Shown: piece after piece, positions 4,646 through 15,859 of the stretch
Layout: each line of letters begins with the position of its first letter
How positions within the stretch are numbered: the stretch's first letter is position 1
IMG/VR virus record: IMGVR_UViG_3300046665_000434
Coordinates: 90,262-154,261 of that record
DNA from: a virus
Reading direction: 5' to 3' (one strand)
Length of the DNA: 64,000 nt
The notes under the pieces: model-generated
Databases searched by the model: none
Told to the model about the DNA's origin: nothing
The model's input: the letters and a program-made list of their open reading frames with translations, nothing else
Translations under genes and position numbers: made by a program

Positions 4646-5443
4646 ATGCTAGCGGTCATTATTAAAGGCAATCCGAAGTTCATCAACACTCCGCTAGCTA
4701 AGTCGTACTATAGTGATATCGAGACGTTTCTAAAATCTCTCGGTTACACAGTTGAGTTTAATGCCGGTAAAGACTACACTCGTCCTAGACAGGATGCGGA
4801 TCTCTATATCGGACATTCTCGTGGTGCCGACCGTTATGACTTCATGGACGCTAAGAACAAAAGCAAGTTCTTGAAGTTCGGTGTCCTTGAAGGCTATATC
4901 CATCCGGTAGATGCCGCGTGGCAGAAAGTAACGAAGCCTGGAACCGGCGTTCCCCCAAACGAACACTTCATCTTCACTGATGAGCAGAAAGAAGCTATCC
5001 GAAGTAAAACGGCCGAGCTCTCTACGGAATCGAACTCAACTGTCGATACGTTGATTGCTAACGCCATGAAAGAAAAGTTCCTTGGCCCAGCCTCTCTTAA
5101 TAAACACATGGAGAATCTGGTTGTCATCGAGTCTAATGGTAAACCTGTAGGCTTCTATATACCGTTCCAAGAAAAGGACGGTGTCTGGCGTACGGGATCG
5201 ATTTACCTGCTACCTGAATATCGTGGACGTGGGATCGCTAAAGACGTGATCGCCAAGTTCGCGAAAGAGCGGAGAGTAAGGGCATGGATAGAGCGTGGAA
5301 ATACAGCCAGCGTTCGGGCCTTTACTGCGGCAGGGTTGGCGGGGACTGGACGACGCTTGCTGGTGAACGGTAAGCACTTTGATGAGTACGTTACTCTTGA
5401 AGAATCGTTAGAGCGCAATACGCGTATCCTGAGCTGGGACTAA
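4646..5443 (+). CDS. Two-domain protein: GHSRG hydrolase-like domain + GNAT acetyltransferase
   Basis: YIGHSRG; GNAT motif A IYLLPEYRGRGIAK and motif B NTASVRAF; STE linker and SLE..W tail. Confidence 0.7.
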   Translation: MLAVIIKGNPKFINTPLAKSYYSDIETFLKSLGYTVEFNAGKDYTRPRQDADLYIGHSRGADRYDFMDAKNKSKFLKFGVLEGYIHPVDAAWQKVTKPGTGVPPNEHFIFTDEQKEAIRSKTAELSTESNSTVDTLIANAMKEKFLGPASLNKHMENLVVIESNGKPVGFYIPFQEKDGVWRTGSIYLLPEYRGRGIAKDVIAKFAKERRVRAWIERGNTASVRAFTAAGLAGTGRRLLVNGKHFDEYVTLEESLERNTRILSWD

Positions 5444-5449
5444 TCATTA

Positions 5450-5734
5450 TATGCAAGCACCGGGTAGGGTGTAAGCAGACGGTGGCGGTTACGCCTGATC
5501 GAGTGACACACTCCTCGGTTAGGTAACCAGTGGTCAGGATGTCCTCTCTGACCTAAGACGTTATTGCTGTGGGTGCGATAACGTCTGCTGAAGCGAATGC
5601 TCAGCCTACAACGTTTGGTAGCGCGGGGACATGCCAAACGTTGTGGGGTGGACATACATACCCCAGTGTGACCACTACCGTACATCCCTCGATCCTTCCA
5701 CTCCTAGGGATCGAGGGATGTACCTTTCTTTATG
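5450..5734 (+). ncRNA. Putative structured non-coding RNA A
   Basis: No credible ORF; five hairpins inside a closing helix 5479-5485/5675-5681; TATG at 5450; 15-bp terminator stem 5681-5722. Confidence 0.6.
5681..5731 (+). terminator. Intrinsic terminator
   Basis: TACATCCCTCGATCC / GGATCGAGGGATGTA perfect stem followed by CCTTTCTTT. Confidence 0.75.
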
Positions 5735-7553: not shown

Positions 7554-7555
7554 TA

Positions 7556-7597
7556 TACAGGAGAGGCGTAAGCCTCTCCTGTACTCTTCTTTTTTTT
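7556..7597 (+). terminator. Intrinsic terminator
   Basis: TACAGGAGAGGC-GTAA-GCCTCTCCTGTA plus T tract. Confidence 0.85.
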
Positions 7598-7627
7598 GTT
7601 GTAATAGCTTACATTTGGTTTCAATAC

Positions 7628-7933
7628 TATGTAGAAGTACCCGTGGCTAATAGCCATTACAGTACAGCCATGCTCTTTAACAACTCGGTGTCAGTCACAG
7701 TAAGTGCTATCTCAGTACAGCTCCCTGATAATGACTCTCTAGCATAGCGGGTATCCAGCCCTGCATCTTAGCGCCTTTCTGGAACGATAAGCGCGCTCCA
7801 TTCGATCATGTACGAAATATCAAGTCGTTGAGCAGTAAGGGCGCTGCGCTCTGGCGATACACGACAAGGGTTGAGTCGGGTCTTTGGAAGAAACAAAGAA
7901 GTCATACGGCCCGGCCTTGCGCCGGGCTTTATG
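7628..7933 (+). ncRNA. Putative structured non-coding RNA B
   Basis: Lies between two terminators; TATG at 7628; nested long-range helices 7638-43/7748-53, 7756-62/7867-73, 7770-78/7837-45. Confidence 0.45.
7903..7933 (+). terminator. CATA..TATG-flanked hairpin terminator
   Basis: GCCCGGC-CTTGC-GCCGGGC-TTTATG. Confidence 0.65.
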
Positions 7934-7991
7934 CTGTATGTAAGTATTTATAATGACGAAGTACTTATGAACATCAGTGTAGACTTCCGCC

Positions 7992-8877: not shown

Positions 8878-9867
8878 ATGACTACATTTATCGTAATGAC
8901 TTATGAACGTTCTTATCATGCCCATCACCGTCACGCCAGCAGTGGCTTTATCGCGTTTGCTGTAGCTAGCGCCGATATATTGGACTATAAACGAACCATA
9001 GTCGATAGCCCTAGCCCTCACCTTACGAAACCTGACCATTTTATCGAGATGGAGTTAGGGTTTCCGCATGCGGTAAGACCATTTTTGAGTGAGCTGGTCG
9101 ACTCGTTCTTTCATCACAAAGACAGTGAACTATGGAAAATGTCGCAGTTCTTGGTGGTTGCTCAGTACGACCCGCAGAAAGACAAGATCGTCAATAAGCA
9201 AATTATCCCGCTGCGCGATATCAAGAAAGCATTTCTGCCGGAGCAACCGATTGACGATAAGTTTTCCAAAGTGGGGTTGGAGTTCCGTAACAACTTGAAC
9301 GAGGAAGATATCTCTATCGTAAAAGAGGTGGCGTTGAACCTCGACCTGAACGAACGGCTGCTCACAAAAGCCAGACGCTGGAATGCTGGAGATAACAAAC
9401 GCCTCGGCCAATTTCAGCTGGTGAAGAACCACTGCAAAATGATCGGTATTCGTCAAGCTCCATTCTCGGTCCACTCTTTAGATACCGATATCCATATTGA
9501 TCGGTTCAATTCGAAGAACATCGAATTGATGGAGACGTTCTTCAATAAACACGTCACTTCGATCGAATACGGTATCGGTGATTTGAGAAGCGCGAAACTC
9601 TTTTACGCCGGCCCTCTTACGGCAGAGATGGTCACTGGCATGGTGGAGTTGTTTAAACGTTCTGAATTCGACATCCTCTATTATCAAACCAATACCCTCG
9701 GTAATGAGGTCGTCGAAGCTGAGGTTCTGAATCTTAGTTCCGGTAGTTTTGGGATCCATGAACAGGCTGGGATGCCAGAGCGTGGCTTTGTTGATTTCCA
9801 CGCCCTCAGACATCCAAAAGGCGAAGGTGCGCTGCGATTCGCCGAACAACTCCACAACCAGCTGTAA
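8878..9867 (+). CDS. Hypothetical protein
   Basis: 329-aa ORF, no recognised motif. Confidence 0.7.
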   Translation: MTTFIVMTYERSYHAHHRHASSGFIAFAVASADILDYKRTIVDSPSPHLTKPDHFIEMELGFPHAVRPFLSELVDSFFHHKDSELWKMSQFLVVAQYDPQKDKIVNKQIIPLRDIKKAFLPEQPIDDKFSKVGLEFRNNLNEEDISIVKEVALNLDLNERLLTKARRWNAGDNKRLGQFQLVKNHCKMIGIRQAPFSVHSLDTDIHIDRFNSKNIELMETFFNKHVTSIEYGIGDLRSAKLFYAGPLTAEMVTGMVELFKRSEFDILYYQTNTLGNEVVEAEVLNLSSGSFGIHEQAGMPERGFVDFHALRHPKGEGALRFAEQLHNQL

Positions 9868-9890
9868 ATAATTACATGATGTCACCGTGA

Positions 9891-10288
9891 TATGTAAAAG
9901 GTCTATCACGGATCAGTTACCTCCTTTGGGGAGCGGTGTTGTAATTCCCCGTCTGGCCGACAACCGCTCTCACTTTTTATTCCTTGGGATCGTATTACGG
10001 TTCCTCAAGAACCCCGCCGCGTAGCGTATTTGCCCGCGCGCGGCTAGGTACTGCACCGCCTCACCCTATAGGTTGCAGTTACAGCCAGCGAAGGCTGGTG
10101 GACCTCGTATAGCGCTGTCGAATGCTGTTAGTTAATGGGGTGGTCTCTCACACTGAGCCGCCAGTTGTCGGTAGGCCGGGTTAAGGCTTGGTCGCCCAGT
10201 TCACCTTGACCTGATCTTGGTGTTCTACCTGAATCTATCGACAAGTCCTGCCTCTCCTGCCTCCTTAGGGAGGTGGGGGAGTTTTATG
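9891..10288 (+). ncRNA. Putative structured non-coding RNA C
   Basis: ~400 nt without a credible ORF; at least seven hairpins; end-to-end helix GATCAG 9911-16/CTGATC 10211-16; TATG at 9891; terminator 10252-10285. Confidence 0.6.
10252..10288 (+). terminator. Intrinsic terminator
   Basis: CTCTCCTGCCTCC-TTAG-GGAGGTGGGGGAG-TTTT. Confidence 0.7.
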
Positions 10289-10352
10289 CTGTTAGGGATA
10301 TGGTATGCAGTGGTAGCCTCCATTGTACCGCAACACTTTAAAGGACTGTCAC

Positions 10353-10877
10353 ATGAAACTCAATATCGCTCTGTCTGCTGTAGCGAACGTGCTGGGTGCT
10401 ATCAACGCTGCCAACACCGCTGTTAGCCTGGCCCTCACCGAAGCCCAGGTTACTTTCGCTGCACCAGCGGTAACTGCCGGCACTGCTGGCCGTAACACCT
10501 CCATTACCTTGACCGGCGTCAATGGCCAGGGCGTCGAAGGTTCTCGTACATTCTCCTACACCCGCCAATCCCTGGCTGCTGGTGCCGTGGCTTCGACTGC
10601 TCCGGCAAGCGTTACCACAGCGCCTGGCGATACCGAAGCAGCTTCGCTGACCAAGGTCGCTACTGCTCTGGGTCTGCTGGCTGGTGAGTTCACTTCGAGT
10701 GCGTTTACCGCTCCTGCGGACATGACCACTCCGGGCACCATCACTCTGACCGCCAACGCGGCCAGTCTGGTGTACACCGGGGCTCGTACGGTGGCTTTGA
10801 ATTTTCCTGACTCCGACGTAGACTTCGCCACCCTGGCGCCGACTACTGACCTGGACGGTTTCGATGCTGAAGCCTAA
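10353..10877 (+). CDS. Virion structural protein, member of the repeated-module family (probably high copy)
   Basis: AAGGA SD; Ala/Thr-rich; module LGAINAAN..VTFAAP..NTSITLT..G...FSYTR..L and DLDGF tail; codon usage like the capsid gene. Confidence 0.8.
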   Translation: MKLNIALSAVANVLGAINAANTAVSLALTEAQVTFAAPAVTAGTAGRNTSITLTGVNGQGVEGSRTFSYTRQSLAAGAVASTAPASVTTAPGDTEAASLTKVATALGLLAGEFTSSAFTAPADMTTPGTITLTANAASLVYTGARTVALNFPDSDVDFATLAPTTDLDGFDAEA

Positions 10878-14359: not shown

Positions 14360-15859
14360 TTACAGGAACCCGTTGAGAACCGGGTTAGGGAATTCAGTGC
14401 TGATGTTCGGGATGTCACGACCGACCAGGAATGTAGAGCCTGGGATAAAGAAGCGACTAGTCGCAGCAGCAGTGAGTGTCACCGATGTGGAACCGGAGAC
14501 GATGTCCCCATCTACGATATCATCAGCGTTGATGGTCATTCCGCTCGCCGTTACCAACTTAGGCAACAGATCGAGGATCTTCACTTCAGAGCCGATGGTC
14601 AGTGAGAGTGGGTCGTCGAACATCCGGGTAAGATCTACCCGGTTGTAGAACATGGTCCACGAGCCACGAAGACCCGACCCTACAGTTGAACCTACCACTA
14701 CTTGAGTGTTAAAGTTCGCATTACCGGTCAACACGTCCGGCGCAGCAGCCGTGAAGTTTGCAGGTACTCGAACCGGCTTAGCGGTCGCAGCGATCAGGTT
14801 TAGCAACGCTTGACGGCCAGTCACGCCCTTAGGCAGTGGAGGCAGTGCGTAGGTAACCGCATAGCCCTGGATGTTAGCGACGTTCACTACCCCGGCCGGA
14901 GTCGTAACCAGATCGATGTTTCCGATCGATGTCTTGGTCAGCTTCTCGCCCAGAGGACCTTTGTGGAATACACCAAGAGATCCGCTGTAGGAGTACCCGG
15001 TTGCTGCGGCGTTGGCCGAAGTACCAGCGAGATCAGTACCGCCTTCGTTCAACTTACCGGCTACGGCGATCACCGCACCGGTGGTCGATCCGAGACCTGC
15101 GTTCAGCTCAATCGCATATGCTGCACGAGATGCAGGGATGGCGCTGAGAAGACGTGTAGTCAACGGCATCACTGGACTAGGAGCTACGGCGATCTTTGTA
15201 GTCGGAACAGCTCCAGGCTCACTCAGAGCGGCTACAAGAGATCCTCCAGCTGGGTTGGTCGTCCAGTTGGTCCCTGTTGCAGCATTCAGAGTAACCGGAT
15301 AGTTCTTCCAGCTGGTGTATGGCCCAGTAGGTTGACCGAGGCTTGCTTGATCATCACTGATGATGATGTCGGACCAGTCGATCTGGTTGGCCACACTACC
15401 TTTGGCTTCCAGGCCGAACGAGAAGCTGCGCAGACCTGCGCCGACGTTGAGGCCGCCGATACTAACCCCATCGCACAGACATTCGACGTTACCCGTTGCG
15501 AAGGTATACGAGAACTCGAGGCAGTATTCTTTGTTGAGGACAAGGTTCGTGATCGCAGCAGCGCGAATCAGGAACGTACCACCGAAGTAAATGATCCCGG
15601 CCTGGTTGTTGACCAGCGCCGTAACGCGAGCTTTTACACTCACCCACAGCTTGGCCGTAGGAGCAGCCAAGTAAGGGTCAAGCGGGATGGTGATTCGTTC
15701 CAGGCCTGCGGTGGTGCTGTTACTGACGATCCAGCCGTTGACGATAGTGTTCGACACAGATTGATCTGCGCCGCGAGTCAAGCCGTGAGTAGCGTAGTTG
15801 GCCCAACTCGTATCGTTCTGCGGTAAATGGTTGACTGCAATAATTGCTCTGACGGCCAT
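14360..15859 (-). CDS. Tail-fibre/virion protein: lectin-like region + family module
   Basis: Concanavalin-like beta pattern (YCLEFSY..GNVECLCDG); module with YNRVDL; VLNGF tail. Confidence 0.8.
   Translation of the reverse strand: MAVRAIIAVNHLPQNDTSWANYATHGLTRGADQSVSNTIVNGWIVSNSTTAGLERITIPLDPYLAAPTAKLWVSVKARVTALVNNQAGIIYFGGTFLIRAAAITNLVLNKEYCLEFSYTFATGNVECLCDGVSIGGLNVGAGLRSFSFGLEAKGSVANQIDWSDIIISDDQASLGQPTGPYTSWKNYPVTLNAATGTNWTTNPAGGSLVAALSEPGAVPTTKIAVAPSPVMPLTTRLLSAIPASRAAYAIELNAGLGSTTGAVIAVAGKLNEGGTDLAGTSANAAATGYSYSGSLGVFHKGPLGEKLTKTSIGNIDLVTTPAGVVNVANIQGYAVTYALPPLPKGVTGRQALLNLIAATAKPVRVPANFTAAAPDVLTGNANFNTQVVVGSTVGSGLRGSWTMFYNRVDLTRMFDDPLSLTIGSEVKILDLLPKLVTASGMTINADDIVDGDIVSGSTSVTLTAAATSRFFIPGSTFLVGRDIPNISTEFPNPVLNGFL

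Follow-up and report, generated by a model that had tools for sequence, protein, structure and literature searches.

A candidate non-coding RNA of approximately 390 nt, with its own predicted promoter and terminator, upstream of a virion-protein gene in a probable phiKZ-like jumbo phage

GOLLD and ROOL are large multi-helix non-coding RNAs borne by phages and prophages and often found beside tRNA genes, whilst phage T4 produces the stable RNAs C and D (species 1 and 2), which measure ~120-140 nt, are encoded inside the tRNA cluster and are expressed together with the phage tRNAs. In phiKZ and 201phi2-1, ONT-cappable-seq has identified small RNAs derived from intergenic regions and 5′ UTRs, filtered to lengths of <250 nt (PMC11512511, PMC10914365). 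The subject of the present analysis is a predicted non-coding RNA, RNA C (9894-10286, plus strand, ~393 nt), which displays no credible ORF and no Rfam match. Coordinates refer to the window, i.e. the whole 64 000-nt stretch of DNA that was analysed, unless a genome position is specified. The small RNAs of phiKZ and 201phi2-1 resemble RNA C in that they belong to nucleus-forming jumbo phages and that their units run from a promoter to a terminator preceding the next gene, and some of them adjoin tRNAs or lie upstream of virion genes, as do members of the RNA C family. They differ in length (<250 nt, in contrast to ~390 nt for RNA C and up to ~650 nt in its relatives), the comparison being one of description and not of sequence. 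The small RNA upstream of phiKZ gp182, which has been described as conserved, was considered as a positional homologue and rejected, as the gap in question is only 55 nt and gp182 does not belong to the DUF7941 proteins. RNA C falls outside GOLLD and ROOL: neither gave an Rfam match, whether at the gathering score or with E relaxed to 10, and both the motifs and the host phage group differ. The T4 RNAs C and D sit inside a tRNA cluster, whereas 33 kb separate RNA C from the tRNA cluster of its own genome, with which it has only the predicted promoter type in common. GOLLD, ROOL and the T4 RNAs are functional analogies to RNA C rather than relatives, and RNA C represents a new, unnamed RNA family of an already known kind of element.

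The window takes up the final 64 kb of an IMG/VR virus record 154 kb in length, with an estimated completeness of 62 %. The major capsid protein matched the phiKZ-type head family (PHROG 3231, E 8e-120) and was 36 % identical to that of Pseudomonas phage pPa_SNUABM_DT01, followed by those of nearly 200 phiKZ-like jumbo phages. No resemblance to known phages at the DNA level was found by megablast and blastn of the gap containing RNA C. The source is most likely an uncultured phiKZ-like (Chimalliviridae-like) jumbo phage. RNA C sits in a 4.9-kb accessory island bordered by a conserved GNAT acetyltransferase gene (4646-5443) and a cluster of paralogous DUF7941 virion-protein genes, and the gene content of this island turns over quickly across relatives. 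Within it, a gene-free gap of 485 bases (gap C, 9868-10352) extends from the stop of a 329-aa ORF (8878-9867) to the ATG at 10353 of a gene for a 174-aa DUF7941 virion protein (10353-10877). On a crude ORF map of the 154-kb record, gap C ranks among the largest stretches without an ORF. The 329-aa ORF had no homologue beyond its own record among 5.8 billion proteins and IMG/VR, and tblastn against known phages gave no match, so it could not be used for locating orthologous loci. The DUF7941 protein had 35 relatives (48-75 % identity), the longest of their contigs measuring 290 kb, and approximately 35 loci were fetched, which are referred to below by L numbers. Elsewhere in the window, a 499-aa virion protein (14360-15859, minus strand) corresponds to two adjacent separate genes in relatives, its counterparts in L002 being a protein of 319 aa and a DUF7941 protein of 206 aa; both fused and split forms thus exist in this paralogous family.

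Gap C begins with a bipartite promoter-like motif (9864-9894, plus strand) that comprises GTAAATAATTAC (9864-9875), a 15-nt spacer and TATG (9891-9894), with the stop codon of the 329-aa ORF (9865-9867) located inside it. Late promoters of the phiKZ nvRNAP have a four-base TATG core and initiate transcription at its G (PMC12809450); by the same logic, the start of RNA C is predicted at G9894, the G of TATG. Copies of this motif with an identical 15-nt spacing were present at only a few other sites in the genome, namely 63526, 66430 and window position 7609, the last of these heading another ORF-free gap, gap B. The copy at genome position 66430 (GTAAAAAGTTAC-N15-TATG; element 66430-66792, outside the window) is followed after 85 nt by the tRNA cluster, which opens with tRNA-Asp and continues with tRNA-Asn and tRNA-Trp. 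Shared sequence therefore suggests that RNA C and the tRNA cluster have a promoter class in common; in 201phi2-1, a tRNA is made from a middle-class promoter (PMC11512511). Among the relatives, GTAAATAGTTAC-N15-TAT(G/A) with identical spacing was identified in ten distinct sequences (L002, L006, L012, L014, L017, L025, L029, L030, L036 and L038). Every instance was on the gene strand and directly before an ORF-free stretch of 250-720 nt, itself upstream of the orthologous DUF7941 gene. This promoter class seems to be reserved for RNA genes.

At the opposite end of gap C is an intrinsic terminator (10252-10285, plus strand) with a 13-bp stem (10252-10281; pair probability ~1.0), a UUAG loop and a UUUU tract. 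Directly past it, a TATG (10285-10288, plus strand) probably serves as a late-type promoter for the virion gene at 10353-10877, judging from its likeness to the phiKZ core. A terminator followed by TTTATGC also closes gap B, a third ORF-free gap (gap A) and most of the relatives' elements, and RNA C conforms to this arrangement: it occupies the equivalent site, is free of ORFs and finishes with a terminator and (T)TTATGC. No terminator was found between the stop at 9867 and position 10252; since the promoter motif also overlaps the stop codon, any read-through mRNA from the 329-aa ORF must carry the region as well. The original prediction had described an inverted repeat, CCGTGATA/TATCACGG (9885-92/9904-11), around the putative TATG start. 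The repeat is exact and does straddle G9894, so its 5′ arm would be absent from an RNA that starts there, and the full hairpin (9885-9911) would be available only in DNA or in read-through RNA. Its placement suggests that it could be an operator-like site.

Coding potential in gap C was negligible. Only three short ORFs were present, all lacking an ATG start and none of them credible, and protein-level similarity was limited to noise of <26 bits in tblastn with 4404 ORFs of the genome and the fetched relatives, which led us to reject a pseudogene. A diversity-generating retroelement (DGR) template or repeat was also rejected, as the genome contains no second copy of the gap, and so was a Csr/Rsm-type sponge, as the six GGA triplets in 397 nt approximate the chance expectation by our own count. 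Across the whole window, Rfam 15 returned no match at the gathering score, with families covered that include group I and II introns, hammerhead, twister, pistol, T-box and riboswitches as well as GOLLD, ROOL, tmRNA, RNase P, 6S and Y RNA. The original prediction had looked to an Rfam scan and to assays of self-cleavage or splicing. With the scan of the gap relaxed to E up to 10, the single match was P26 at 14 bits, and no ribozyme, riboswitch or intron appeared. Nothing relevant was found in ten relative loci at E up to 1, and RNA C does not contain the CUGAUGA string of a hammerhead. A ribozyme, riboswitch or intron identity is not supported; RNA C most likely belongs to a fast-evolving RNA family that is absent from Rfam.

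The region had initially been described as a multi-hairpin RNA of approximately 400 nt, and most of this description held. The seven pairs of sequences quoted with it were correctly placed and are exact reverse complements, and ViennaRNA reproduced the hairpins at 9931-69, 9983-10009, 10016-44, 10050-79, 10085-98 and 10139-62 along with the terminator, with pair probabilities mostly of 0.85-1.0 (~0.5 for 10085-98). On the plus strand, hairpin H1 (9929-9971; GAGCGGU/ACCGCUC, pair probabilities 0.5-1.0) is followed by three central hairpins, H2 (9983-10009), H3 (10011-10049) and H4 (10050-10079), the latter two with pair probabilities of 0.84-1.0. Further downstream, helix H8 (10165-75/10234-44, within 10163-10246; pair probability 0.84-1.0) encloses a hairpin that we designated F (10177-10213). 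The F hairpin has a lower 10-bp helix (10177-86/10204-13) and an upper part in which UUGG (10188-91) pairs with CCAG (10196-99) around a UCGC loop, and it contains the 9-mer CUUGGUCGC (10187-10195). The ORF-free unit of approximately 390 nt, its hairpins, the TATG-type start and a private terminator were thus upheld, whilst the folding z-score was unremarkable: minimum free energy (MFE) z-scores were -3.2 for the plus strand and -2.0 for the minus strand, against a mean of -1.39 (sd 1.2, minimum -3.75) in coding windows of the same genome (n=14). The thermodynamic stability of RNA C is unexceptional and within the range of coding sequence, and folding energy alone therefore does not distinguish the region.

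Most of the fetched loci contained a large ORF-free stretch at the same position. Exceptions were L009, L018, L020, L039 and L040, which had no RNA there and only the terminator and promoter. In two of these, L009 (1496-2272) and L039 (997-1770), an island gene had precomputed weak hits to Acb2/Tad1-hairpin, a family of anti-CBASS and anti-Thoeris sponges; for the L009 protein the hint was not reproduced by a Pfam scan at E 0.01. Comparison of the body of gap C with the first relatives by blastn and nhmmer gave no significant similarity, and a long-RNA profile recovered only the promoter. The relatives' elements nonetheless grouped into conserved families among themselves and were better conserved than neighbouring genes. 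One such family, g1, was identified directly upstream of the virion gene in L005 (3688-3950), with equivalents in L007, L008, L010 and L016; at its 5′ end, a TATAAT-like box takes the place of the GTAAAT...TTAC motif. The g1 elements were 82-94 % identical, in contrast to 77-81 % for the adjacent virion gene and 63-80 % for other neighbours, and their consensus fold contained 17 pairs with compensatory changes. Long elements of ~650 nt in L036, L017 and L002 shared many blocks and gave a consensus fold in which 39 pairs displayed double-sided changes, and L037 contributed a fourth lineage of long elements, in which the unit adjoins tRNA genes. Given the conservation of g1 and the compensatory and double-sided pairs, we read the ORF-free units at this position as real, selected, structured RNAs of this phage clade, on comparative sequence grounds. 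A minimal version of ~75 nt was also observed at ~2240-2320 in L012, L014, L025, L029 and L030, starting with TATG-UGAGAAC; a stem of 12 bp closes it by joining the 5′ end to the bases immediately past the F hairpin. In L036 (~1860-1940), and at equivalent sites in L017 and L002, the string AUCA-CUGAUGA-(stem)-GAAAC-(hairpin)-U-UGAU could be drawn by eye as a type I hammerhead; this candidate was rejected because the Rfam hammerhead models gave no match at E up to 10.

Several features tie RNA C to these elements. The closest relative of the window's DUF7941 protein (63 % identity) is that of L038, a sister lineage with an RNA of ~390 nt (compared with ~393 nt for RNA C) at the same position and with the same promoter motif. 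A block of 41 nt (10110-10150, plus strand) is common to the two RNAs at 80 % identity, including an exact 17-mer (pairwise E 5e-7). An exact 16-mer of the conserved block had five matches in IMG/VR, all of them chance occurrences inside coding sequence. The 9-mer CUUGGUCGC occurs once in the 154-kb genome, and was also present upstream of the orthologous gene in L002, L006, L012/14/25/29/30, L036 and L037, and with one mismatch in L017; that is, in at least six other lineages with unalignable flanking sequence. As a 9-mer is expected ~0.002 times per 600-nt stretch, this recurrence reflects conservation and not chance. The short RNA of the L012 type has UUGG-UCGC-CCAA where RNA C has UUGG-UCGC-CCAG. 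The stem that encloses the F motif differs in sequence in each lineage (helix test p ~0.03-0.06 per lineage), and RNA C likewise holds the motif inside an enclosing stem. Directly 3′ of the F module, L036, L017 and L002 share CUGAUCYUUG, and in their consensus fold CUCUGAU pairs with the 5′ end of the RNA.

A further tie is a signature of CAGCC and GGGGUGG, separated in RNA C by 50 nt (10082-10143, plus strand) with the order and spacing seen in the family. CAGCC-N(25-55)-GGGTGG had two matches in the 64-kb window, both on the plus strand and located in gaps A and C, and among the fetched loci it matched RNA gaps only. In L036, L017, L002 and L037, CAGCC and GGGUGG form the base of a covarying hairpin, the family core. 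Covariance model R1 of this core hairpin matched gap A (E 9e-4) and had no match in gap C; an R1 search of the whole genome and four complete relatives found nothing. Forcing the core hairpin in RNA C cost 14.6 kcal/mol because both of its strands are taken up by local hairpins (10082-98 and 10139-62), whereas in L038 it forms in the minimum-energy fold. RNA C may therefore be a remodelled or decaying member of the family. As for structural conservation in homologues, whose lack the original prediction had named as a refutation, the F motif, the sequences of the clamp (described below) and the signature recur in relatives; no close homologue of RNA C was present among them, similarity of the body reached significance only with L038, and covariation was seen in the helices of relatives.

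Gap A (5450-5734) contains the canonical core hairpin (5592-5674; CAGCC...GGGGUGG with a G-G mismatch) that is matched by R1, a model built from four other phages, and it ends in a terminator followed by TTTATGCC, without CUUGGUCGC. Gap B (7554-7991) carries the promoter motif at 7609, ends in a terminator followed by TTTATGCTG, and shares 67 % identity across 384 nt with L002 (901-1333), in a stretch devoid of ORFs; from this similarity, it looks like a second conserved non-coding RNA family. RNA C has the F hairpin with a remodelled core, and gap A has the core without F, so the modules of the family seem to be separable as far as their distribution in these sequences goes.

The original prediction had further proposed that GATCAG and CTGATC close the RNA, and that the segment 10164-74 can pair in two ways, indicative of a switch or pseudoknot. 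GAUCAG (9911-16), at +17 from the predicted start, is complementary to CUGAUC (10211-16). These sequences would form part of a clamp (plus strand) whose 5′ strand, CACGGAUCAG (9907-9916), has its predicted partner at 10211-10222, where the conserved CUGAUCYUUG is found. This outer pairing matches the clamp in the consensus fold of the long relatives. It also crosses the very stable helix H8, which makes a pseudoknot or alternative folds possible. The free fold of RNA C had an energy of -153.0 kcal/mol (MFE). With the clamp imposed, the optimum was -147.3 kcal/mol (+5.7 over the MFE), contained a long 5′/3′ duplex, and adopted the 9957-64/10164-71 pairing unprompted, whilst a family-like fold with both the clamp and the F hairpin reached -145.3 kcal/mol (7.7 above the MFE). 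Three folds thus lie within 8 kcal/mol, and those with the outer pairing are 5.7-7.7 kcal/mol above the MFE. As for the dual pairing of 10164-74, both helices can be folded, but the 8-bp pairing of 10164-71 with 9957-64 is by itself near chance, with approximately one such 8-mer complement expected per 400-nt RNA by our own arithmetic. The wider complementarity between the two ends was less ordinary: the duplex of 9905-9966 with 10164-10222 had an energy of -47.8 kcal/mol (z -3.45), a value reached by 3 of 1000 shuffles and none of 163 coding windows. On these folding models, a switch or pseudoknot in RNA C is possible yet unproven.

In sum, we consider it probable, if well short of certain, that approximately 390 nt of gap C form an independent gene for a non-coding RNA, with its own promoter and terminator. 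This reading is supported mainly by comparative evidence; the anatomy of the locus, its lack of coding potential, the conservation of motifs and the covariation in relatives are direct observations. It appears unlikely that the region instead belongs mainly to the mRNA of the 329-aa accessory gene, as an extended and structured 3′ UTR transcribed by read-through to the terminator at 10252-10285. Its hairpins would then do no more than shield that mRNA against 3′ exonucleases and insulate the accessory island from the operon of late virion genes. Such a 3′ UTR would agree with the lack of any earlier terminator, with the overlap of promoter motif and stop codon, by which read-through RNA must contain the region, and with an inverted repeat that is whole only in read-through RNA. 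Yet the upstream gene is an orphan among 5.8 billion proteins, whereas the promoter, F motif and clamp recur behind different upstream genes; in L037 the unit comes after tRNA genes and not a protein gene, and a single terminator would suffice for insulation. Also unlikely is a view of the region as a decaying relic, or as a spacer with no function, placed in a hypervariable recombination island, where only the promoter and terminator would function and the short shared motifs would be left over from common descent. The unexceptional folding z-score, the disrupted core hairpin, the several relatives without any RNA at the position and the quick turnover of island genes would all fit a relic. 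Neutral decay, however, would not preserve a full 9-mer across six or more lineages with unalignable flanks, hold sister RNAs at 393 and ~390 nt or give 5′/3′ complementarity with a z-score of -3.45, and the equivalents in relatives are under stronger constraint than neighbouring genes.

Regulation in cis is a doubtful explanation that we rate as improbable. A leader, riboswitch or bistable attenuator of the DUF7941 gene, alternating between the clamp and local-hairpin folds, would account for the conserved position directly upstream of the virion gene and for the three folds of similar energy. The alternative folds spare the terminator, however, which lies outside them and retains a pair probability of ~1.0 in all, and we therefore do not read them as an attenuator. 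A separate TATG promoter is present past the terminator, no riboswitch or T-box was matched, and relatives express the same gene without such a leader. A self-cleaving ribozyme or an ORF-less intron splitting a structural gene is very improbable indeed. The idea gains some appeal from the paralogous virion proteins, which are both fused and split, and from the CUGAUGA...GAAAC string resembling a hammerhead core (by eye) in the long relatives. Against this, no group I intron, group II intron or hammerhead was matched even at E up to 10, and the hammerhead-like string is absent from the window. An intron dividing a gene was specifically rejected, as the paralogues have N-terminal parts to which the 329-aa ORF bears no relation and the downstream gene is complete, its product covering the DUF7941 profile from position 5 with the entire domain and its own start codon.

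If RNA C is a stand-alone RNA gene, transcription would start at G9894 through GTAAATAATTAC-N15-TATG, the promoter class of the tRNA cluster and gap B, and would end at 10252-10285, after which a fresh TATG promoter would serve the virion gene. The product of approximately 393 nt would be a multi-hairpin RNA of a modular family in which most of the sequence evolves beyond recognition, the elements kept being the F hairpin (UUGG-UCGC-CCAG), the CAGCC/GGGUGG element and the GAUCAG/CUGAUC clamp between the 5′ and 3′ ends. Invariant hairpin, loop and bulge sequences may be where a partner, either protein or RNA, recognizes the molecule, with the variable helices as scaffold. Taken together, the invariant elements, modular copies, fast-turnover island and tRNA-type promoter would fit best with a trans-acting RNA, serving as a decoy or scaffold, whose temporal class would be that of the tRNAs; expression, start site, partner and biological role are the predicted components of this model. 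More tentatively, and as a possibility we would not favour at present, RNA C, gaps A and B and the 250-650-nt elements of relatives might together constitute an undescribed, modular and fast-evolving class of large non-coding RNAs of nucleus-forming jumbo phages, expressed from a dedicated 'RNA-gene' promoter shared with tRNAs. On this view, a factor of the host or the phage would bind their invariant hairpins (UUGG-UCGC-CCAG, and CAGCC/GGGUGG with its G-G mismatch), which might for instance function as decoys within an island of accessory or counter-defence genes, and the clamp and local-hairpin folds would be a real switch.

Non-coding RNAs of jumbo phages have barely been charted, and those described so far are short. 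The window and its relatives point to a family of structured RNAs of 75-650 nt, characterized by a dedicated promoter of the tRNA type, constraint above that of neighbouring virion genes and several modular copies per genome. The family could join RNA family libraries, such that gaps of this kind would no longer be annotated as empty. If real, it would offer a tractable way to study what nucleus-forming phages do with RNA, for instance as decoys or scaffolds or in RNA sorting.
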